Shown: positions 2,707 to 49,065 of the stretch, one piece after another
Numbering within the stretch: position 1 is the stretch's first letter
How the letters are laid out: each line of letters opens with the position of its first letter
Assembly (NCBI GenBank): GCA_964368835.1
Contig: CAYJCZ010000001.1
Location: 89,481-153,480 of the forward strand
Reading direction: 5' to 3'
DNA: 64,000 bases
DNA from: an uncultured Candidatus Saccharibacteria bacterium
GTDB taxonomy: Bacteria > Patescibacteriota > Minisyncoccia > Phycocordibacterales > UBA6065
The notes under the pieces: model-generated
Told to the model about the DNA's origin: nothing
Seen by the model: the letters and a program-made list of their open reading frames with translations, nothing else
Database searches by the model: none
Position numbers and translations under genes: made by a program

Positions 2707-3081
2707 CTAGCCTTTCATGTGAGCGACACAAGTCCTTGCCGCCGGATTTGCTTCGAGGCGAGCATGCTCAATCTCCTCTCCGCCCACTTCACAGATTCCG
2801 TATGTTCCCTTCTTGATCTTATCTAGGGCAAGTTTTACATCGTTGTATTGAATCTCAAGTGGTTTTAGGATCGCAGTGTTCGATTCATAGCTTTCAATAT
2901 TGTCTGCAATGTCAGCAGAATCAGATGCGTTAACGTCTACATCGCCCGATGAAGCTTCCCAATCCTTTGGGTTACTTGGATTCTTGTGTCCAACACTTTT
3001 AAGCTCAGTTTCAAGTGTTGCAAGCTCCTTTTCGAGTTTAGTCTTGAAGATTCCTGTATCAATTTTGGTTTGTTTTTTCAT
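2707..3081 (-). CDS. DksA/TraR family C4-type zinc-finger protein
   Basis: Coiled-coil N-terminus and C-terminal Cys4 motif CEVGGEEIEHARLEANPAARTC typical of DksA/TraR. Confidence 0.7.
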   Translation of the reverse strand: MKKQTKIDTGIFKTKLEKELATLETELKSVGHKNPSNPKDWEASSGDVDVNASDSADIADNIESYESNTAILKPLEIQYNDVKLALDKIKKGTYGICEVGGEEIEHARLEANPAARTCVAHMKG

Positions 3082-4349: not shown

Positions 4350-5000
4350 TTATCTTAATTTTCGAATCACTTTTCGCATTCCTCCCATTTTTCCTTGATC
4401 TCCTTGTCGCTGAGGTTTGTCATTGTGTTCTTGTCGGTTTTCCTCATTTCGATCGGTTTTCTTTGGGAATTCCCTGTGATCTCGACCGTTGTAACGGCCA
4501 CCCATCACGTATCGCCCTGCATTTTCATCCATGTCGATGAAATCGTCTGCGACTTCCTTGAGCTTTCCAGATGCTGACTTACCGAATGAAATTACTTCCA
4601 CTTGGCATCCATTCATCTTTAAGTACTCAATAAGAGGGATAAAGTCACCATCGCCTGATGCGATAACGACCACGTCGAGCTTTGATGCGAGTTTAACTGC
4701 ATCGATTGCCAAACCTACGTCCCAATCAGCCTTTTTTGAGCCAGATGAGAAGATTTGAAGATCTTTTGTCTTTGTTTCGATACCGATCTTTGTAAGAGCG
4801 TCGAAAAAGCCTTTTTCTTCGCCTGTTTCTGTGGTGATCACATATGCGATCGCACGAACAAGCTGACGTCCGGCTAGGGCGTCTCCTAGAACATTATCGA
4901 AGTTCACCCTTCCTTGATGAAGGTTTTTTGCGCTGTGATAGAGATTCTGCGCATCGAGGAATACGCCTACGCGCTGTTCCTTGTGTTTAATTACTGCCAT
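4350..5000 (-). CDS. NYN/LabA-like domain protein with basic C-terminal tail
   Basis: N-terminal VGVFLDAQNLYHSAK and ASGDGDFIPLIEYLK motifs typical of NYN (LabA-like) PIN-like nucleases. Lys/Arg-rich C-terminus. Confidence 0.7.
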   Translation of the reverse strand: MAVIKHKEQRVGVFLDAQNLYHSAKNLHQGRVNFDNVLGDALAGRQLVRAIAYVITTETGEEKGFFDALTKIGIETKTKDLQIFSSGSKKADWDVGLAIDAVKLASKLDVVVIASGDGDFIPLIEYLKMNGCQVEVISFGKSASGKLKEVADDFIDMDENAGRYVMGGRYNGRDHREFPKKTDRNEENRQEHNDKPQRQGDQGKMGGMRKVIRKLR

Positions 5001-11505: not shown

Positions 11506-11820
11506 ATGATGATCTGTATGCCAAAAAACTCTTTCATTAACGATAGATATAAGAAAGTGAGGGGAGGTTACTCACGTCTTTTAGAGATTTCCTGTGAAAA
11601 GTGCAAAGAACCTGTTTGTTCGTATCAGAAGGATGGTCCAGGTGGATTACGTAGGATGTATCTAGACCGAATACTTAATCCTCGCGTCTCAATAACTCGA
11701 AAAGACTTTTCTTGTTCAAACAATCACTTGCTTGGAGTAAAGATTGTGTACGAAAAAGAAAACCGACCAGCATTTCGACTTTTTGTAGATGCTATAAAGA
11801 AAAAGATTATCAAATCCTAA
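11506..11820 (+). CDS. small Cys-rich (zinc-ribbon-like) hypothetical protein
   Basis: CEKCKEPVCSY and CSNNH Cys pairs. The tracked ORF starts inside the tRNA-Pro, so the start was moved to the first ATG after the tRNA. Its stop overlaps the next gene's ATG (TAATG). Confidence 0.45.
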   Translation: MMICMPKNSFINDRYKKVRGGYSRLLEISCEKCKEPVCSYQKDGPGGLRRMYLDRILNPRVSITRKDFSCSNNHLLGVKIVYEKENRPAFRLFVDAIKKKIIKS

Positions 11821-41564: not shown

Positions 41565-41999
41565 TTAAAGTGTGATCTCATAGATACCTCTGGTCTCGGG
41601 GGAGGTGTCTATTAGTCTGATCCAAGTCGGTGTCACAAGGAAGCACTTTTGATCCTCGAGAAGGACGAATTTCGTTGTTTGTTTACCTTTTAACGCGAGT
41701 AGTTCGCCATATTTTAACGCCTCAACATCTGACAATTCGCGAGCGATGCCCTCGTATTGAACACTGCCGGTTTCTTTACTCCAGCCAATAACCATAGAGA
41801 TTTTCTTGTTTGTCTGCAGGTTTTTATACTTTCGAGTTTTGCTTGATGTGCTAAAGATAAGGCTCAAATCATCTCTTTCTGCAAAAGCCATAACGGCCGA
41901 TTCTGGCTGGTTCTTTGTATTATCGATGGTTGAAATAACCGATAGTTGTTGGCCTTTGAGGAGGTTTTTAATTTTATCTTTAATGGTTGAGTCGTTCAT
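41565..41999 (-). CDS. pyridoxamine 5-phosphate oxidase-like FMN-binding split-barrel protein
   Basis: Length and motifs (LSVISTID...ESAVMAFAERDDLSLIFSTS...) resemble the PNPOx-like general stress protein 26 family. Confidence 0.5.
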   Translation of the reverse strand: MNDSTIKDKIKNLLKGQQLSVISTIDNTKNQPESAVMAFAERDDLSLIFSTSSKTRKYKNLQTNKKISMVIGWSKETGSVQYEGIARELSDVEALKYGELLALKGKQTTKFVLLEDQKCFLVTPTWIRLIDTSPETRGIYEITL

Positions 42000-42007
42000 A
42001 TGCTTCT

Positions 42008-42391
42008 TTATTCTGAATCAACTTCGACTCGAAAGCCACCGTAACAGAAACGCTTCCCATCAAACGGCATCCCCATTGCCTGCATTTCTGGACTATTCAT
42101 AGCGGGATCAGCCATAACTTTTGCGTTGACCTCATCGCGGTGTTCGCGTGAATTAAAAACTATAAATGAGAGCCAGACCGTCTCATCTTCTTTTGCATCG
42201 GCGGCACTCATAAACGAACGAGGCTTCATACCCATGCCTTCTGGGTGCAGATCGTCTCCGATACATTCTTTGTAATCGAGTGCGCCGTGTTTCATCCACA
42301 CTTCTTTTCCAAGTGTTGCCATCTTTTTATATTCAGCGATTTTATCTTTTGGAATGACAAGCAAGAATCCGTCTACGTATTTATTGTTCAT
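42008..42391 (-). CDS. DUF1428 family protein
   Basis: MNNKYVDGFLLVIPKDKIAEYKKMA...HGALDYKEC...EDETVWLSFIVFNSREHRDEVNAKVMADP matches the conserved DUF1428 (YbaA-like) pattern. Confidence 0.65.
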   Translation of the reverse strand: MNNKYVDGFLLVIPKDKIAEYKKMATLGKEVWMKHGALDYKECIGDDLHPEGMGMKPRSFMSAADAKEDETVWLSFIVFNSREHRDEVNAKVMADPAMNSPEMQAMGMPFDGKRFCYGGFRVEVDSE

Positions 42392-42474
42392 TGGTGTAAT
42401 TGTTTATACTGGCTATTACCTAATATATTACTCAAATATAATACTTGAATCTACCTCGCCATGTTTCGTTTGGG

Positions 42475-42500
42475 GGTGCTGTCGTAGGGGATGTTAGAAC
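42475..42500 (-). promoter_or_regulatory. 26-nt conserved motif copy 1 (sense: GTTCTAACATCCCCTACGACAGCACC), about 100 nt upstream of the DUF1428 gene
   Basis: One of three near-identical copies (42475, 43065, 45382), plus a palindromic variant at 43761, each 90-110 nt upstream of a minus-strand gene start. Confidence 0.45.
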
Positions 42501-42504
42501 CGTA

Positions 42505-42993
42505 TTATCTGGTTTTTATGACTGAGTCACCAATTAGATATAAAACGAGAGTTTGCCATGTCATAAATATATAAATCCAAGATGAGTCATTGTAATAAGG
42601 ATACGGCAAGCTGGATACAATGCCACCAATGAGCGAAATAAATAGTACTTTACGCATAGTGATTTTTTCGAGTAATTTGCTCGCAGTAAGAGTCATTACA
42701 AAACTTCCAAATGCTCCAGCGACGAAAAAAGTGATGTAGTCATTACCCGCAAGGGCTACACAAATTAAATAGCTTAGATAGAAGGTTGCGGTGGATATAC
42801 CAATCCATCCAATGGTACGCAAGATGACAAATTTATTTGTCCAATTCACAAATATGACAAGCCAGATTGTAGCAATTCCAAATACCAAGCCCGGTGCGAG
42901 TATAAATCCATATGGATCGGATAATAATATATAAGAAATAAATCCTGATACAAGACCTGTGATTACAAGCAGCAATCTTAAAAGTATTTTCAT
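42505..42993 (-). CDS. hypothetical polytopic membrane protein
   Basis: Five hydrophobic helices. Apparently leaderless, with an extended -10 (TGATATGAT) ending about 7 nt before the ATG. Confidence 0.5.
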   Translation of the reverse strand: MKILLRLLLVITGLVSGFISYILLSDPYGFILAPGLVFGIATIWLVIFVNWTNKFVILRTIGWIGISTATFYLSYLICVALAGNDYITFFVAGAFGSFVMTLTASKLLEKITMRKVLFISLIGGIVSSLPYPYYNDSSWIYIFMTWQTLVLYLIGDSVIKTR

Positions 42994-43064
42994 ACCAAAA
43001 TCATATCAGGTTAGAGCAGAGAAAGCTTTGTGATTATTAGATGAGAGGGGAGAAACTAACAATG

Positions 43065-43090
43065 GGTGCCGTCGTGGAGGAAGTTGGAAC
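43065..43090 (-). promoter_or_regulatory. 26-nt conserved motif copy 2 (sense: GTTCCAACTTCCTCCACGACGGCACC), contiguous with the conserved promoter module
   Basis: Immediately upstream (in sense orientation) of CCCATTGTTAGTTTCTCCCC...TGATATGAT...ATG. The whole 100-nt module is duplicated upstream of the gene at 45407-46459 (46460-46560). Confidence 0.45.
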
Positions 43091-43167
43091 TGGGTTTGAG
43101 AGGAGAAATAACGCGAGTGTCTATATTCCTGCGTCTTATCCCATCTCTGAATACAACAAATGTAAAT

Positions 43168-43200
43168 AAAAAAGCTCTGGATTTCTCCAGAGCTTCGCAA
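43168..43200 (-). terminator. intrinsic terminator of the GC-rich ORF
   Basis: Sense strand GAAGCTCTGGA-gaaa-TCCAGAGCTTTTTTATTT. Confidence 0.6.
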
Positions 43201-43206
43201 AGTGAA

Positions 43207-43635
43207 TTACCGTCCTTCCGGCCCGTATCCACGCATCCGTGTGTCATGATCCTCCTGCTTTTCTTCGTCTGTACGATGAGTGTCATGATCACCCTGCTTG
43301 AGAAACGCTTCATGCTCACGCTTGTTGCGTTGATGTTCATCAAGCGTACGGTCAATGACAGAAGACTGCCCTCCATGCCGCTCATAAGAAATTTGAGCAT
43401 TAAAGGCTGCATCGCACTCGGCGTCGATATTGGCTTTCCCTTTGCGATAGCCGAGCTGGAAGCAGGGAGAGTAACGGCTGAGGCTCTGACTCCGTATAAC
43501 CTCGTCATTGTAGCCTCGATCGTAACCCTTTTGCCATTCCTTTTTAGCTGAATCCACATTGCCTCCTAGTTCGGGGCAGGGAGGAATGTGAGCTGTCTCA
43601 CTACCTCCGCAATATCTGCATGCTGTTGAGCTCAT
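43207..43635 (-). CDS. hypothetical GC-rich ORF (charged, His/Asp/Glu-rich; CxxC pair at N-terminus), compositionally atypical
   Basis: 142-aa ORF with its own terminator. Two other long ORFs overlap it in other frames, a sign of locally high GC. Product unknown. Confidence 0.35.
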   Translation of the reverse strand: MSSTACRYCGGSETAHIPPCPELGGNVDSAKKEWQKGYDRGYNDEVIRSQSLSRYSPCFQLGYRKGKANIDAECDAAFNAQISYERHGGQSSVIDRTLDEHQRNKREHEAFLKQGDHDTHRTDEEKQEDHDTRMRGYGPEGR

Positions 43636-43760
43636 AGAATGTGCTAGCGGTGAATTATTCGTGTCACCTGATTTCCTTAGGAATCACACGTTGCTCGAAT
43701 GAGCGGATTTTGAAGAACTTAACTTTATGAATCCACGATCGAAATCGTGAACTCAATGAA

Positions 43761-43784
43761 GTGGAGGATGGTTAGATCCTCCAA
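43761..43784 (-). promoter_or_regulatory. palindromic variant of the 26-nt motif (GTGGAGGATGGTTAGATCCTCCA)
   Basis: The GGAGGAT core is paired with its inverted repeat ATCCTCC. It sits among three consecutive perfect hairpins in the 43740-43810 intergenic space. Confidence 0.35.
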
Positions 43785-43829
43785 TTTTGTGAATGATTCT
43801 CCATTCACGAGAGTTTGCAGAGAATACTG

Positions 43830-44348
43830 CTATTTAAGAACGCCGAGGAAGCAAACGCGAACGAAGCCTTTCTCGGTCTGGGGCAACCACAGTTTCCAGG
43901 GTTTTCCCGTCCCAGAAGCAATAAGCCCAGGAGCACGACCTACGGCCGTGATCGATCCAAGGGCGACGATCGGAATAGAATTTTGTCCCGCTTTGGGATT
44001 TTTGATCCCGTAGTCGAGAAGATCGCCGAGAGTGCCTGGTCGATAGCCTTCCTTGTTCATTTCGATGATCACCTTATCTTCATTGTTGAAGCTTCGATTG
44101 GGCCAAAAGCAGAAAAGCTTTTGACCTTGCCCGAGAACCAGAGTCTCGGGACCGAAGGTGTCTTCATTGATGTCGATGGGATGACCATTGAATGTCTTGA
44201 AGTGGCTGGGCATGTCTTTCAGGTTCATGGTAGTAGTATTCATTATAGTGATTTGATTGACAGTGTAAGGATTCTTCAGAATCAGCGTATGCCGATTTAC
44301 CGAAAACTCCCGATTTCTGCCAACCAACTCTGCATTCAAAGAACTCAT
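43830..44348 (-). CDS. hypothetical protein, paralog A of a diverged gene pair (with the ORF at 46676-47077)
   Basis: Start set at MSSLNAELVG, 7 nt after a consensus TTGACT-N17-TATAAT promoter. The promoter plus first codons are alignable at nucleotide level with 47078-47180. The proteins share an FNNEDKVIIEMNK / FNINEEKRVIALAK block. Confidence 0.45.
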   Translation of the reverse strand: MSSLNAELVGRNREFSVNRHTLILKNPYTVNQITIMNTTTMNLKDMPSHFKTFNGHPIDINEDTFGPETLVLGQGQKLFCFWPNRSFNNEDKVIIEMNKEGYRPGTLGDLLDYGIKNPKAGQNSIPIVALGSITAVGRAPGLIASGTGKPWKLWLPQTEKGFVRVCFLGVLK

Positions 44349-44444
44349 ATTTACGTATATATTATACACCTATTTGATGTAAAAGTCAAGTATTGTGAGC
44401 GTCAAAATAGCCCTATAAATAGGGGTTAAATTGGAGAAAAAATC

Positions 44445-44640
44445 GATGGGTGCCTAGAGAGACCGCGGGTACGCTTATCGCCCTCGACTAAAACTTTTTC
44501 GTCAAAAAGTTTTGTCTAGGCACCGCCTCGCACCCATCGGAAACCTTCGGGTCCCGCTCCGGCGTCCGATTCTCTCCCGCATGTCTACTAGACATGCTTA
44601 CGGCACCCAACAGAAAAACCGCTTTCGCGGCTTTTCAATT
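44445..44640. ncRNA. GC-rich structured element (candidate small RNA or structured insertion), identity unassigned
   Basis: A 9-bp long-range helix (GATGGGTGC at 44445 with GCACCCATC at 44530) encloses nested helices, including a perfect 10-bp hairpin AAAACTTTTT-cgtc-AAAAAGTTTT and an ACC-TTCG-GGT hairpin. Followed by GCATGTCTA-c-TAGACATGC and a terminator-like CCGC-GAAA-GCGG-TTTTT (minus-strand sense) at 44614-44636. Absent from the paralogous upstream region at 47078-47220. Confidence 0.3.
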
Positions 44641-44745
44641 GGGTCACTATCCGAACACAGTTATAACCATTTTGGAGGATAGGGAGTATATGGAATCTTT
44701 GTATGCAAAGTTTCTGGTTGTTAAGTATCTAAGAATAGAAGTTCC

Positions 44746-45309
44746 TTAATTTAATTCAGCAATATCACTTTTAGCTAAATAAGTTTTGATTTTTTCGATT
44801 TCTTCTAATACATTCTTCTTTCCAGACTCTGATTCAGCCCAGTTATCTTTTGTGAAAGGGTAGTATTCAGAATAATATGCAGCCGCTTTGAGTTTTATAT
44901 TAGCAGGTGTGTGTCTGCGTAGTGTCATCAGTGAACGACGGGCGTGATAATTTTTTACAACCCCAACAATTGTGTGGATGCTTTTAAGACCAATTTCTTT
45001 ATCAATCACCTTTAATGAAAACAGAACATTTTCTAATGTATTTGTAGACTCATTTTCTATAAGGATGTCATCTCTTTTAACACCAAGATTTATCAACTCA
45101 TTAGCCATATGATCACCCTCAATAATACCGGTTTGAGCATTTATACCGCCACTCACAATTATTTTAGGAACCAAACCCGTTCTGTATAGTTCGGCTGCTT
45201 TTTCAACAGAGCCCTTCCATGCATTCCATGTCCCAAATACTAAAGCCACATCGGCACTTTGATCAGTATCGTTAAGGAAAATATATTCCGATAGTTCCTT
45301 GTTCGTCAT
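44746..45309 (-). CDS. DUF218 (YdcF/SanA/ElyC-like) domain protein
   Basis: ALVFGTWNAWKGSVEKAAELYRTGLVPKIIVSGG...ENESTNTLEN matches the DUF218 core. Confidence 0.7.
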   Translation of the reverse strand: MTNKELSEYIFLNDTDQSADVALVFGTWNAWKGSVEKAAELYRTGLVPKIIVSGGINAQTGIIEGDHMANELINLGVKRDDILIENESTNTLENVLFSLKVIDKEIGLKSIHTIVGVVKNYHARRSLMTLRRHTPANIKLKAAAYYSEYYPFTKDNWAESESGKKNVLEEIEKIKTYLAKSDIAELN

Positions 45310-45381
45310 AGGAAAAAGTATAACAGTTCAATTCCGTGTAGCCTAAATAACCACTAAATCACAAGGGTTTGAATTTTCAGG

Positions 45382-45407
45382 GGTGCCGTCGTGGAGGATG
45401 TTAGAAC
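45382..45407 (-). promoter_or_regulatory. 26-nt conserved motif copy 3 (sense: GTTCTAACATCCTCCACGACGGCACC), overlapping the stop codon of the upstream gene and about 95 nt upstream of the DUF218 gene
   Basis: Differs at only 3 positions from copy 1. Confidence 0.45.
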
Positions 45408-46459
45408 TATTCTCTGTGCAAAATAATTCTTGTTGCATGCAGAACGCCTTGTGCATCTGTGGGGCCAGTAACCAATAGTCTAAATCCACCCGGTCCATCA
45501 TAGGGGCGTTTCATAATTTCTACTATTTCACTGAAGTTATCGTAATTTTGTTCCTTTGCAGATACAAACACTCTTTCGCCGTCAGACATATAACTTTCAG
45601 AATATTTAGCAGTAGAATAGTCTATCTTTAGTTTTTCTCCTTCGTAGTCGGATGTATGCCACAAACCATCGGCTGGGAAAGTGCCTCCAGATACAAATGT
45701 CACTACTTCGCCATCAATGGAGTAAACCGATGATTTTGTGAAAGTTTCGAGAGGCACTGGTTCGCCGAACATGACTTCATATCGAGAAGAGCACGGACAA
45801 TATGGCTCAGATACTCGGTCTGGAAAATCTTTATATCCAGCATGGATCAAGCTTTTGCGGTAGATGATTGAATAAAGATAATTGTCAGCGATTTTCACAT
45901 AACTTCCGACAGAACCATATGGGCCATCGGCGGAAGGTCCGTGAACTTCCTTATTGTCAATTTTTACAGACCAAGTCCAACCTCTCTTTTTCAACTCTGA
46001 CTCATAATACATGGATAGAGCTTGGTAGTTTGTATATTTATTGCCCTCATCAAGATTTTCTTCGCGAGACGTCCACCTGCTGTTTACATTTACAGGTATG
46101 GTTTTGTACTGGAATGGTTCAGATACAGTTATCGAGAGCTCAGTTCTTGTAGGGGACTCAGACTTCCAAGATAGTGATTGGAAGAGAGGGGGATAATCCG
46201 TAAGTCTTTGACTTACTCCAGCATATCCACCACCATCACCATCATAACCAATATTACTTTTTGTCGATGTTGCAGTCACGGCCTCAGGTCTAATATTTTC
46301 TTGAGATTGATCCTTACTTAAAAAATAAAATCCGCCAATTACAATTAAAAAAGCAATTAGAGCGATTACTAAAATATTCTTAGACAGATGTTTTGGTTCC
46401 TGAATAATACTTTGAGATTCGCTCGGAACATGAGGTGCCGATTGTTGTTGATTTTCCAT
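45407..46459 (-). CDS. hypothetical secreted/membrane-anchored protein (350 aa)
   Basis: N-terminal TM after a short cytoplasmic segment. Apparently leaderless, with an extended -10 (TGGTATGAT). Its upstream 100 nt is homologous to 42994-43090. Confidence 0.5.
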   Translation of the reverse strand: MENQQQSAPHVPSESQSIIQEPKHLSKNILVIALIAFLIVIGGFYFLSKDQSQENIRPEAVTATSTKSNIGYDGDGGGYAGVSQRLTDYPPLFQSLSWKSESPTRTELSITVSEPFQYKTIPVNVNSRWTSREENLDEGNKYTNYQALSMYYESELKKRGWTWSVKIDNKEVHGPSADGPYGSVGSYVKIADNYLYSIIYRKSLIHAGYKDFPDRVSEPYCPCSSRYEVMFGEPVPLETFTKSSVYSIDGEVVTFVSGGTFPADGLWHTSDYEGEKLKIDYSTAKYSESYMSDGERVFVSAKEQNYDNFSEIVEIMKRPYDGPGGFRLLVTGPTDAQGVLHATRIILHRE

Positions 46460-46629
46460 ATCAAAATCATACCAGGTTAAAACTGAAAAAGCCTTGAGGT
46501 TATTAGACGAAAGGGAAGAAACTAACGATGGGTCGAGACAGGTCGGCTATTCTGGAGGTGTTGGGGGATAGGGAGTATTTAAATATAGTAGGGGAGAAGT
46601 TGGAGTATGTGGCATTATTTGCATAACAA

Positions 46630-46658
46630 AACCCGCGGAGCACTTTCGTGATGCGGGT
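46630..46658 (-). terminator. terminator-like hairpin after paralog B
   Basis: Sense strand AACCCGC-atcacgaaagtgctcc-GCGGGTTTTGTT. Confidence 0.4.
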
Positions 46659-46675
46659 TGGAAATGAAATCTCAA

Positions 46676-47077
46676 TCAATGCTTCTTGATAACGTAACAG
46701 TAGTTATAGTCCACTAGAAATGGTACTACGAAGGCGTTTATGATTCTTAATTCAGCCTTTTGACACACTTCGAGCAAACGTTTGGCAAGAGCAATCACCC
46801 GTTTTTCTTCATTGATGTTAAACGTAATGGAGATTTGAGGGGGATAACAATGCGTGTTGTCTTCGATATTGCAGCCTAGTGACTTGATTTCTGGCCACTC
46901 TTTCAATTGACTCGCTAATACCCTAAGTGTCACGCGATCATTATCCATATCTGTTTTGGCACTATTAACGGTTTTGGTAGCCACCGTCGGGGCATTGGAA
47001 TTGTCAGATGTGTTTGTCATGAGCAGGAACGGCCGATAATTCAGCCGCTTTTGTCCATGACAACCATCCTGTATCAA
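46676..47077 (-). CDS. hypothetical protein, paralog B (alternative TTG start as tracked)
   Basis: Shares the promoter/5-prime module and a C-terminal block with the ORF at 43830-44348. The start codon is uncertain: the position homologous to ATG in A is AAT here. Confidence 0.4.
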   Translation of the reverse strand: MIQDGCHGQKRLNYRPFLLMTNTSDNSNAPTVATKTVNSAKTDMDNDRVTLRVLASQLKEWPEIKSLGCNIEDNTHCYPPQISITFNINEEKRVIALAKRLLEVCQKAELRIINAFVVPFLVDYNYCYVIKKH

Positions 47078-47220
47078 AGAACTATTACCTATATATTATA
47101 TCATTTTACACTCAAAAGTCAAGTATAGGCTAGAACCAAAATAGTCCTTTGAATTTGGGTTAAATGGGAGAAAGAATAGATTATAAAAATGACGCTTATA
47201 TCGTCTCTTTAAAATCAAAT

Positions 47221-47616
47221 TTAAAAATATTTCTTTATTTCCATAGGCCAGACCAAAAGGCTCTTTACCAAGTCAGTATCAACCCAAAGTGCCTCAAAGA
47301 ATGTGTCTTTGTCGGTTCCAATATTCTCTGGGCTATTTGGCTGCAAGTGGGGAATACCGCTTATGAATTTAAATTCAAAAGTATGATGTGTCCTTCCGTT
47401 AGAACAGACAAATGATTCTATTTTTCTTATGAATGATGATTCGATTGAAGTTTCCTCCCATACTTCTCTGACCACAGCTTGCTCCGGTGTTTCACCTTCT
47501 TCAAGTGTTCCTCCAGGGAGCATATATACATCTTCTCCAGGTTTATGTCTGCAAAGCATTAGAACTTTTCCATCTTTAATTATGAGTGCCGCAGCTCGAT
47601 CCTTTTTCATTTGCAA
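47221..47616 (-). CDS. NUDIX hydrolase
   Basis: Nudix box GGTLEEGETPEQAVVREVWEETSIE. Confidence 0.75.
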   Translation of the reverse strand: MQMKKDRAAALIIKDGKVLMLCRHKPGEDVYMLPGGTLEEGETPEQAVVREVWEETSIESSFIRKIESFVCSNGRTHHTFEFKFISGIPHLQPNSPENIGTDKDTFFEALWVDTDLVKSLLVWPMEIKKYF

Positions 47617-47669
47617 AGTATATCAAAACCGAATAAGAATCACTTCTTACCCCTAAAGTCATCTTATTC

Positions 47670-47747
47670 TGGTGGGGTGCCTAGAGGGAATCGAACCCTC
47701 GACGCCGGGACCACAATCCAGCGTTTTACCACTAAACTATAGGCACC
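47670..47747 (-). tRNA. tRNA-His (GTG) with genomically encoded G-1 and 3-prime CCA
   Basis: Minus-strand read: G-GTGCCTA...CTGGA-TTGTGGT-CCCGG...GAGGGTTCGATTCCCTC-TAGGCAC-C-CCA. The extra 5-prime G opposite discriminator C is the His identity element. Confidence 0.75.
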
Positions 47748-48653: not shown

Positions 48654-48962
48654 ATGGCATACAAGAAAATTGAAGATTTATACGCCGCGCAAAAGAGACA
48701 TAGGGTTAAAGTCAGGGGACTCCTTTTCAATTTTTTACTTACCAAATCCTGTATTGATTGTGGCGAGAAAGATCCGATAGTACTTGATTTTGATCACCGA
48801 ACACCTGATACTAAATTCAAGCCGATTTCAAAAATGCTGTCAGGTCACTATTCCTGGGAGTCGCTTATGAGGGAAATAAAGAAATGCGACATTAGATGTG
48901 CTAACTGTCATCGTCGCAGGTCACACAAACAATTTGGTTATTTCGGAAGAATGCCCTTGTAG
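48654..48962 (+). CDS. HNH endonuclease
   Basis: CIDCGEK...DFDHRTPD...CANCHRRRSH HNH/zinc-finger motifs. The 3-prime end overlaps the first 10 nt of tRNA-Arg. Confidence 0.75.
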   Translation: MAYKKIEDLYAAQKRHRVKVRGLLFNFLLTKSCIDCGEKDPIVLDFDHRTPDTKFKPISKMLSGHYSWESLMREIKKCDIRCANCHRRRSHKQFGYFGRMPL

Positions 48963-49024
48963 TTTAATGGATAAAACTCCGGACTTCTAAGCCGGGTATC
49001 GTGGTTCGATTCCACGCGAGGGCA
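48953..49024 (+). tRNA. tRNA-Arg (TCT, tentative)
   Basis: GCCCTTG acceptor paired with CGAGGGC, anticodon loop CTTCTAA, T-arm CGTGGTTCGATTCCACG. Followed by a bidirectional terminator at 49033-49064 (AAAACCACTCC-agtgc-GGAGTGGTTTTATTTTT). Confidence 0.7.
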
Positions 49025-49065
49025 CATGAAAAATAAAACCACTCCAGTGCGGAGTGGTTTTATTT

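Follow-up and report, generated by a model that had tools for sequence, protein, structure and literature searches.

The DNA stretch analysed here (the window, 64,000 nucleotides in length) originates from an uncultured Candidatus Saccharibacteria bacterium (assembly GCA_964368835.1, contig CAYJCZ010000001.1, positions 89,481 to 153,480). It contains a tRNA-His gene followed by an array of short gene modules, and the subject of this study is a 26-nt repeat at the end of three of these modules. The tRNA-His gene (anticodon GTG; 47673..47746, minus strand) was detected by ARAGORN and Rfam. Its 3′ end, GGTTCGATTCCCTCTAGGCACC/CCA, is the putative chromosomal attachment site (B arm). In the sense of the genes, tRNA-His is followed by modules A, B and C, a terminator with a GC-rich element, and modules D and E. 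Beyond the NUDIX gene of module A, tRNA-His, tRNA-Leu and ribosomal protein L19 follow on the tRNA-His side.

A degenerate form of the 26-mer matches exactly at 42475-42500, 43065-43090 and 45382-45407, always in the same orientation. A sequence-only reading of this DNA, made without database searches, had reported three copies. This was borne out by the exact matches and by 100 dinucleotide shuffles without any match, a chance expectation of 0. The window holds no further match when up to three mismatches are allowed. On the plus strand, antisense to the neighbouring genes, the motif reads GGTGCCGTCGTRGAGGAWGTTAGAAC and forms the first 26 nt of an element of ~100 nt. In gene sense, it is the outermost 26 nt of this element, GTTCTAAC ATCCTC YACGAC GGCACC/CC. 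The next minus-strand start codon lies 109, 97 and 98 nt from the far end of the motif, in agreement with the spacing described before; counted from the sharp boundary of the element, the gap is 83, 71 and 72 nt. The roughly constant distance to the next gene (~70-85 nt) arises because the leader of the next module directly follows each junction. An abutment of every copy to the preceding stop codon had also been described. It applies to copy 1 (stop codon 42505-42507) and copy 3 (stop codon 45407-45409) and does not apply to copy 2. In a better gene model, the gene preceding copy 2 is located at 43207..43635 and is followed by an intrinsic terminator (43171-43196); copy 2 starts 116 nt past this 142-aa gene, within a longer conserved element. 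The supposed fourth copy is a partial match (GTGGAGGATG-G-TTAGA, 43751-43766). Its 16 nt correspond to motif positions 10-24 plus one inserted base; the terminal nine bases are missing and the terminal GGTGCCGTC is gone. The 7-bp hairpin GGAGGAT/ATCCTCC assigned to it exists, at 43753-43772, slightly off the earlier coordinates, and the two adjoining hairpins are present as described (CACGAT..ATCGTG, 43734-43749; GTGAATG..CATTCAC, 43790-43809).

Arms at the module ends are of two types. The window has three arms of type 1, which contain the 26-mer (one full arm and two half-sites of 26-28 nt), and two arms of type 2. Full arms resemble C-terminal tails of large serine recombinases (LSRs). Module A comprises a NUDIX gene (47221..47616) and a gene for a 133-aa protein (46676..47077), both on the minus strand, and ends in a probable type-2 arm on the plus strand (46528..46626; MGRDRSAILEVLGDREYLNIVGEKLEYVALFA and a stop). 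The similarity to the tails of LSRs P0201 and P0307 is marginal (ILEVLGDREYLNIVGEKLEYV against IIAVFSDREYMAEIREKLQFI of P0201, E 0.015). Module B starts with a left-end leader of 81 nt (46453..46533, minus strand; repeat family D1), which extends from the junction to the start of a 350-aa gene (45407..46459, minus strand). Motif copy 3, a core-only type-1 arm (45382..45407, minus strand), forms the module end and shares one base with the stop codon of the 350-aa gene. Module C consists of a DUF218 gene (44746..45309, minus strand) and a type-2 arm (44636..44745, plus strand; …PNTVITILEDREYMESL… and a stop). This arm matches the tails of LSRs P0312, P0310, P0311 and P0308 with blastp-short E values of 6e-6 to 2e-4, at residues ~500-517 of 539; the best alignment is PNTVITILEDREYMESL against PTAIITVLEDFEYMASL of P0312 (E 6e-6). 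Its outer end in gene sense is …ATAGTGACC/CAA. Module D carries two minus-strand genes of unassigned function, coding for 179 aa (43830..44369) and 142 aa (43207..43635), and a consensus sigma-70 promoter with 11/12 matches at 44361-44389. The partial copy between both genes (43751..43766, minus strand) is a decayed type-1 arm and one side of the hairpin. Module D ends in the full type-1 arm (43062..43169, plus strand), which includes motif copy 2 and encodes MGAVVEEVGTGFERRNNASVYIPASYPISEYNKCK and a stop. In blastp searches, it matched the tails of LSRs P0225, P0227, P0278 and P0193 with E values of 1.6e-10 to 3e-8, and it aligns with copies from other genomes. Module E has an 81-nt left-end leader (42987..43067, minus strand), a paralogue of 46453-46533 with an extended -10-like TGATATGAT before the ATG, a gene for a membrane protein of 162 aa (42505..42993, minus strand) and motif copy 1, a core-only type-1 arm 5 nt past the stop codon (42475..42500, minus strand). 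A DUF1428 gene (42008..42391) and a PNPOx-like gene (41565..41999) follow on the minus strand. Most modules have a recognisable promoter-like sequence just past the junction. The leaders of modules B and E, 81 nt each, are 83% identical, both modules end in a core-only motif, and the cargo differs. Common left and right ends suggest the anatomy of a family of small non-autonomous elements, that is, single-gene mini-elements.

The pattern GGTGCNGTCGTNGNGGANGTTNGAAC was scanned over one genome per species and revealed 49 loci. Nearly all are in Patescibacteria assemblies labelled as Paceibacterota, Adlerbacteria, Taylorbacteria, Colwellbacteria or ‘Saccharibacteria’. Window copy 2 and these loci are conserved for ~75 nt past the motif in one direction; in the other, conservation ends abruptly. 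For 55 distinct full copies, the positional entropy is ~1.8 bits up to the boundary and near zero inside. Substitutions in the conserved part follow a codon pattern. Over the 13 codons that adjoin the searched motif, mean entropies are 0.55, 0.42 and 1.19 bits for the first, second and third codon positions. The reading strand is opposite to that of the neighbouring genes, and the encoded peptide is GAVVEDVRT[IV]FE[RK]xND[AT][TS]IYIP… with a stop ~25-43 codons in. Six core-only copies (26-28 nt, 9 codons) share one inner edge, namely copies 1 and 3 of the window and those of loci L018, L020, L045 and L047. In copy 3, the tail peptide diverges past GAVVEDVRTI. Locus L045 also has the tRNA-His gene and a ~100-nt promoter region in common with the window, at 81-82% identity. 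RNAalifold finds no conserved base pair in 35 copies; the element is thus not an RNA or a terminator, and not a foldable attC site either.

Pairs of genomes diverge exactly at the outer edge of the motif. Loci L010 and L015 are 100% identical over >320 nt up to GGGTGCC and unrelated past it. L006/L039 and L017/L036 break at the boundary in the same way; in L014/L030, the other side of the boundary is common instead. The sequence-only reading had offered, as its second option, a recombination or insertion boundary at which cassettes are joined. The breakpoints support this option, and the motif marks the distal end of islands integrated at tRNA-His. Arrays in direct orientation, with two to three elements 0.5-1.9 kb apart, occur in at least 12 loci. 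All copies within a locus are direct repeats, and an inverted partner of the 26-mer is absent from the window. ARAGORN was run on 48 loci of the motif scan and on two look-up loci, the latter without tRNA-His. A tRNA-His gene is present in 15 of the 48 loci; in 15/15 cases, this gene is upstream of the motif with identical orientation, at a distance of 0.65-3.0 kb (chance of this placement ~(1/4)^15). The distance to copy 3 in the window is ~2.3 kb, and it is 15.4 kb in locus L060, with the same order and orientation. Ribosomal protein L19 and an adenosyltransferase recur on the tRNA-His side of motif loci.

An intact island is present on a 279-kb contig, of which loci L060 and L009 are parts. 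The order in gene sense is rplS, tRNA-Leu, a pduO-type adenosyltransferase gene and tRNA-His, then the island from the LSR gene to the ~100-nt element, then the flank. The island has a size of 15.4 kb and a 9-bp direct repeat, GGCACCCCT, at both junctions (tRNA junction …GTAGGCACCCCT/TTCG; distal junction …CGACGGCACCCCT/AAAG). The two junctions differ, one having the tRNA arm and the other the P arm. The LSR gene (L060 10001-11644, plus strand) overlaps the tRNA-His gene (11589-11662, minus strand), and its tail GAYRDSNPGWEFHKLQC is the reverse complement of the acceptor, T-arm and GTG anticodon arm of the tRNA. Joining the island ends in silico yields …NER-GAVVEDVRTIFERKNDATIYIPIFYHTPQLTI and a stop, in frame with the LSR. 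Hence, the element is the far end of the island and the peptide would be the tail of the LSR when the ends are joined. The cargo after the LSR comprises two small genes, a diversity-generating retroelement (DGR; Avd and reverse transcriptase (RT)), methyltransferases, an AlwI-type endonuclease and several small genes. At L060 5071-6441, the DGR (bAvd, RT) is accompanied by two D12 methyltransferases and the AlwI-type endonuclease.

Protein searches with the peptide connected it to recombinases. A word-indexed search yielded 106 matches; 306 clusters came from an exhaustive profile search through 1.84 billion cluster representatives. The peptide is C-terminal in all 306 protein clusters; the longest protein among the 150 best matches listed has 184 aa. 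N-terminal extensions are mostly junk, and the real ones are C-terminal parts of LSRs (remnants P0120, P0159 and P0188). In L022, a complete recombinase of 526 aa (P0193, N-terminus YCRVSTEEQ) reads in frame into the element. LSR frames also run into the element in L062 and L064, where further short modules follow. The L022 recombinase has the Pfam domains PF00239, PF07508 and PF13408 (Resolvase, Recombinase and Zn_ribbon_recom). Among solved structures, its catalytic domain is nearest to the TP901-1 integrase and a putative conjugative-transposon recombinase. The best NCBIfam match is CcrB; a Ccr system was rejected, as the score is 109 bits versus a cutoff of 900 and the target is tRNA-His, not rlmH. 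A search with this protein retrieved 675 homologues (E ≤ 1e-20), of which the 120 closest were inspected at their C-termini. Five of these full-length LSRs (P0193, P0225, P0227, P0248 and P0278) carry the peptide tail. About 50 end at the same …[RW]-G junction and continue with GAYRESNPD…FHKLQC and similar strings, and most of the remaining ones stop within two residues of the junction. The GAYRESNPD…FHKLQC-type tails are antisense translations of a tRNA gene, tRNA-His where this can be checked. A second tail type (…IITVLEDxEYMxxLKEKL…) is found in a sister LSR clade, whose members end in antisense tRNA or in this tail; the type-2 arm would be the arm used by this clade. In the window, tails of the tRNA-antisense type align to 47646-47732. 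A possible 3′-end remnant of a recombinase (47637..47672, plus strand; …ESLLTPKVILFWW, leading into GA and the stop of antisense tRNA-His) is a weak feature seen in translation. Residues 549-576 of P0239 align to 47646-47729 (E 0.006), and the KVIL…WGA resemblance beside the window tRNA-His is not significant alone. The locus of the intact recombinase-plus-tail gene, L022, also contains a LOOT RNA (RF03000, 80 bits; 2804-2925, minus strand).

The codon periodicity and the conserved stop position could also reflect genuine small protein genes of ~30-45 aa that lie antisense between the genes, with the 26-mer as their 5′ coding end. The 306 ORF clusters called in public data and the in-frame ATG of window copy 2 (43062) are in line with this explanation. 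It is very unlikely given the start regions: between the upstream in-frame stop and the motif, 22 of 52 copies offer no ATG, GTG or TTG. The bases ahead of GGTGCC alternate between NTG-GGT and NTGG-GGT from copy to copy, and putative starts drift in and out of frame (TGG-GGT versus NTG-GGT). Several copies hold internal stop codons, and no more than 9 codons are left in core-only copies. The peptide invariably extends a C-terminus, and the real proteins in front of it are LSRs. Scans of tail ORFs had no match in Pfam (0/10) or PADLOC (0/2).

The peptide might instead be the displaced 3′ end of a host gene. Islands would then insert into the last ~33 codons, as in the staphylococcal cassette chromosome (SCC) at rlmH, and the repeat would be a gene fragment. 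The lack of a start codon, the conserved stop position and the sharp 5′ boundary would all be explained. A small ORF family of ~85 aa (P0040, P0041, P0052 and P0191; L050 723-974) offers a candidate gene. It reads …NEWFVPIEKAYPELEAEYNRLELDETLD…FAELILSW-GAVVEDVRT… and has a conserved, non-recombinase N-terminal part (NEWFVPIEKAYPELE…SW-GAVVEDVRT) without a Pfam or PADLOC match. We consider a displaced gene end just as improbable as small genes. A widespread intact host gene was found neither by the word-indexed search nor among the 1.84 billion cluster representatives of the profile search, where the N-terminal partners are mostly junk, LSR C-termini or this one rare family. Neither the window nor any of the 49 loci contains the N-terminal part of the ~85-aa family, and the intact island has tRNA-His instead of a protein gene as its chromosomal partner.

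A comparison of the two recombination partners gave insight into the site itself. Read outward from the boundary, the arm of the element is GGTGCC-GTCGTG-GAGGATGTTAGAAC (45382-45407). The tRNA-His arm, read alike in antisense, is GGTGCC-TA-GAGGGAATCGAAC (47676-47698). The proximal six bases are the same in both arms, and a T-arm-like distal block is located 4-5 bp farther out in the element, as judged by eye. Only a short identity, GGCACCCC[T], is common to both partners. The outer ends of the L060 island, GTTCTAAC and GTTATATT, match at 5/8 positions. For the LI/A118 integrase of Listeria, the contacts of a single C-terminal domain extend over all 25 bp of an attP half-site (PMC3783163). A minimal attB is shorter than attP by ~10 bp, and the zinc-ribbon motif is 5 bp nearer to the crossover in attB than in attP (PMC3783163). 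The block offset of 4-5 bp resembles this shift of 5 bp between attP and attB half-sites of serine integrases.

The motif is probably the terminal arm, that is, the P half-site of attP left at attR-type junctions, of islands which LSRs move into the 3′ end of tRNA-His in Patescibacteria. We assign a probability of roughly 0.8 to this reading, based on the layout of the islands, their sharp breakpoints, the link to tRNA-His, the tails of LSRs and the codon-periodic substitutions. The LSR presumably binds the 26-mer. As a P half-site, the 26-mer would be held by binding constraints and the next ~75 nt by constraints on coding for the tail. In an intact island, the LSR gene is located at the tRNA-side end, reading outward over the junction into the antisense tRNA, with the ~100-nt element at the opposite end. 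After excision, or where islands abut, the LSR frame would continue into the element and yield the conserved tail of ~30 aa. A tail encoded in this way would account for the coding-like evolution of a repeat that does not look like a gene. In the window, the LSR gene would have been lost, leaving five accessory modules of one to two genes downstream of tRNA-His, each ending in an arm. Such short modules would be non-autonomous or decayed islands.

Several points weigh against this assignment. Of the 26 motif positions, 20 were fixed in the search pattern, which biases the DNA conservation of the motif. At junctions without an LSR, the far side is nearly unconserved (~1.8 bits) and no convincing inverted P′ partner was found; such junctions may not be complete attP sites. 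The 64-kb window has no LSR gene body, only matches to tails, and its arms may be inert scars. The tRNA type was directly verified only in L060, in the window and for the FHKLQC-type tails; the remaining tails may belong to other tRNAs. Neither an empty site nor a circular-junction sequence was recovered. Canonical serine integrases do not recombine attL or attR, and the tandem arrays therefore need a special explanation. Arrays may grow by a recognition dominated by the tRNA arm that reuses attL (a tolerant B′), by a Ccr-like promiscuity or by secondary sites such as the tRNA-His-like element described below.

The sequence-only reading had first suggested an operator or activator site at a fixed distance to promoters. 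One transcription factor would bind the 26-mer ~70-110 nt upstream of each gene and co-regulate the island. All three window copies do lie 71-83 nt before the next start codon, and each downstream gene appears to have a promoter-like sequence of its own, an extended -10-like TGnTATGAT or TGTTATACT before the ATG. The spacing is not maintained elsewhere: among the 49 other loci, the next start is between ~10 and >300 nt away from the boundary, and the neighbour is on the other strand in several. The motif has neither dyad symmetry nor a direct internal repeat. It belongs to a ~100-nt element, which continues for ~75 nt with codon-periodic substitutions on the opposite strand, and it tracks tRNA-His and LSR genes, not promoters. 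Predicted promoters are no more frequent than in shuffled sequence, and none of the strong ones keeps a constant offset from the motif. Among the neighbouring gene families, no regulator was seen to recur, where co-occurrence was not directly tested. An operator is not supported and is slightly less probable still than the protein-gene explanations.

Least probable of all is an integron-like attC, a folded single-strand site of cassettes captured by an IntI-type tyrosine recombinase: the cassette-like layout (modules of one to two genes in one orientation, a one-sided conserved site with a sharp boundary) and a cargo typical of chromosomal integron cassettes (NUDIX, DUF1428, toxin-antitoxin, Fic) speak for it, and against it stand the 0 pairs of RNAalifold, the lack of an R″/R′ inverted core partner, a conservation of sequence and codons over distant genomes that is unlike attC, a serine instead of a tyrosine recombinase, and an anchoring at a tRNA rather than at attI beside intI. 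The attC cores RYYYAAC/GTTRRRY and their palindrome are absent by eye and by folding; IntI and attI were not found, in a window not systematically scanned for an IntI gene.

Other identities were rejected. A terminal repeat of a known insertion sequence (IS) or miniature inverted-repeat transposable element (MITE) had been named in the sequence-only reading as evidence that would speak against its interpretation. In spirit, this applies, the motif being the terminal arm of a mobile element; the element is an integrase-type island and not an IS or MITE, with direct repeats and no inverted partner. A phage origin was dismissed after the viral contigs of IMG/VR, scanned with the pattern, gave no match. 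The element ends in GGCACCCCA and was compared to the 3′ half of a tRNA or tmRNA, but a T-arm could not be drawn, ARAGORN remained silent and the coding signal is on the other strand. For known RNA families, Rfam at gathering thresholds detected only tRNAs and the one LOOT RNA in L022 among the window and 18 loci. A permissive E-value scan of 42300-47300 had no match on the motif or the GC-rich element. A DGR template repeat was considered, as bacteria of the candidate phyla radiation (CPR) are rich in DGRs and an RT is located near the L050 copy. The peptide is not similar to a variable region, and the link to an RT does not recur. The RT of L050 (1244-2359) is group-II-like or of the UG type and convergent with the small ORF that bears the tail. 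Another RT, in L062 (1028-2377), is accompanied by DUF4238, Mrr-like and TerB-like genes.

For the recombinase islands at tRNA-His, the position of the crossover raises a further possibility, which is speculative and rather unlikely. The attP crossover would lie inside the integrase gene, and the tail of ~30 aa would be made only when the ends are joined, a built-in sensor of the integration state. Integration at tRNA-His would remove or replace the tail, which would be under purifying selection at the opposite end of the island. It might bias integration versus excision or alter stability without a directionality factor. A function of the tail and the mode of array growth are both conjectural. 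As an extension, core-only arms together with the 81-nt left end may be mini-elements without a recombinase that borrow the enzyme. These mini-elements could give CPR bacteria a functionally integron-like cassette system that relies on a tRNA gene and a serine recombinase.

The GC-rich element of ~166 nt between modules C and D (44447..44612, minus strand) resembles the tRNA-His gene. Its fold is very stable, with a free energy of -96 kcal/mol (z = -7.3). The acceptor-like closing stem is GGGUGCC/GGCACCC, the 5′ half is similar to antisense tRNA-His and the 3′ half to sense tRNA-His, and the last 12 nt are those of tRNA-His; the 3′ end, CTCTAGGCACC/CATCG, copies the 3′ end of the tRNA gene. 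A terminator hairpin (44610-44635) overlaps the 5′ end of the element by three bases. Rfam has no match for the element. Homologous GC-rich elements follow a motif boundary and a terminator in L043 (2216-2440) and L010 (7255-7481), and weaker ones in L029 (3914-4140) and L028. Judging from its sequence, the element looks like a second B-type junction, with further modules after its 3′ end. Strain-level variation in the lineage of the window was not seen, as the only contigs with identical proteins share its gene order. Same-strain assemblies break inside this element of the array, which suggests a multi-copy or variable sequence. A long perfect palindrome is located 3′ of tRNA-His in several genomes (L045 near 1060-1120, L002 near 4490-4550, L029 near 2740-2800). 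It includes an inverted copy of the acceptor end (for example, TAGGCACCCAAACA…TGTTTGGGTGCCTA) and could be a terminator incorporating the attachment site.

Additional repeats accompany the promoters. A 45-nt repeat, 82% identical between 44403-44447 and 47137-47181, is also present past the motif boundary in L045 (near 2277-2373). In the window, it is directly upstream of the two best sigma-70 matches of the region (TTGACT-16/17 nt-TATAAT; 44361-44389 and 47095-47122). The motif TTTTNAGTTCYAGY occurs 45-47 nt past the junction at seven junctions of six loci (L016, L021, L031, L045, L046 and L062) and at window 47118-47137. A TTGAC -35 box follows it after 7-9 nt. This motif repeats AGTTCTAAC of the arm in direct orientation and might be a promoter-proximal or accessory recombination site. 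Extended -10-like sequences (TGATATGAT, TGTTATACT and TGGTATGAT) are located 6-9 nt upstream of the ATG at 42993, 45309 and 46459. These gene starts have no Shine-Dalgarno sequence, and the short distance suggests leaderless or near-leaderless transcripts. Outside the array, a small HNH-type endonuclease ORF (48654-48962, plus strand; …CIDCGEKDPIVLDFDH…CANCHRRRSH) lies between tRNA-Val and the next operon and ends in or abuts tRNA-Arg (48953-49025).

Little has been described of the mobile elements of Patescibacteria, whose genomes are tiny. Full-text literature searches on serine recombinases and integrases, cassettes, integrons and tRNA targets, mostly in combination with CPR, provided nothing relevant. 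One 26-nt repeat led to an apparently widespread family of islands, with 675 LSR homologues and 306 clusters of tail ORFs. The islands at tRNA-His next to rplS carry DGRs, restriction-modification, toxin-antitoxin, Fic and NUDIX genes. The P arm together with tRNA-His is a sequence handle to delimit accessory DNA in fragmented CPR assemblies, and repeated elements of this kind may partly explain this fragmentation. The candidate attP/attB pairs with a tRNA target are of interest for the development of serine-integrase tools. An integrase C-terminus that changes with the integration state would, if functional, encode directionality in a new manner. For sequence interpretation in general, a recombination arm can present itself as a short repeat at a ‘fixed distance from promoters’; here, the clue was a codon-periodic signal on the opposite strand.

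Known systems share parts of this architecture. Large serine integrases (A118/LI, phiC31, Bxb1, TP901-1) act on attP (P-O-P′) and attB (B-O-B′) and have the same set of domains. The arm of ~26 nt compares well with the 25-bp attP half-site per subunit (PMC3783163). In contrast to these integrases, the LSR ORF crosses the crossover, with a C-terminus of antisense tRNA in the integrated state and the ~30-aa tail in the joined state. Tandem arrays are present, which canonical integrases should not build, and a dyad symmetry of P and P′ could not be demonstrated. Targets at tRNA 3′ ends are more typical of tyrosine integrases, and the target of these LSRs is a tRNA gene.

In SCC and composite SCC, the LSRs CcrAB or CcrC insert islands at the 3′ end of the housekeeping gene rlmH/orfX. 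Repeated insertion creates tandem composites whose units are bounded by direct repeats of the integration site, and many pseudo-SCC lack a recombinase. SCCmec and composite SCC resemble the islands in their arrays and in the CcrB profile as best NCBIfam match. They differ in that the islands have a tRNA target, Patescibacteria as hosts, a non-Ccr protein and a site that combines a 26-nt mimic of a tRNA arm with a coding tail, rather than a copy of the last rlmH codons. Islands and prophages of tyrosine integrases also build up downstream of a tRNA in fixed orientation, with the integrase beside the tRNA, a distal end that resembles the tRNA 3′ end, and accessory or defence cargo (DGR, restriction-modification, toxin-antitoxin, Fic). 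Here, the recombinase is a serine enzyme, and only GGCACC(CC) is identical, the rest being a re-spaced mimic. Integron cassette arrays have compact modules of one to two genes in one orientation and one-sided site conservation with a sharp boundary in common with the window; the attC hairpin is absent here, most modules appear to have a promoter-like sequence and the enzyme is a serine recombinase. In the integration-dependent immunity of mycobacteriophages, which Broussard et al. are said to have described in 2013, attP reportedly lies inside a gene and integration changes the C-terminus of the protein. Both cases have a crossover inside an ORF and different C-terminal ends in the integrated and excised states; there, a repressor loses a degradation tag, and here the recombinase itself is concerned. 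What sets the islands apart from known systems is the combination of a tRNA target, a re-spaced mimic of the tRNA arm, an integrase frame that crosses the crossover and cassette-like mini-modules.

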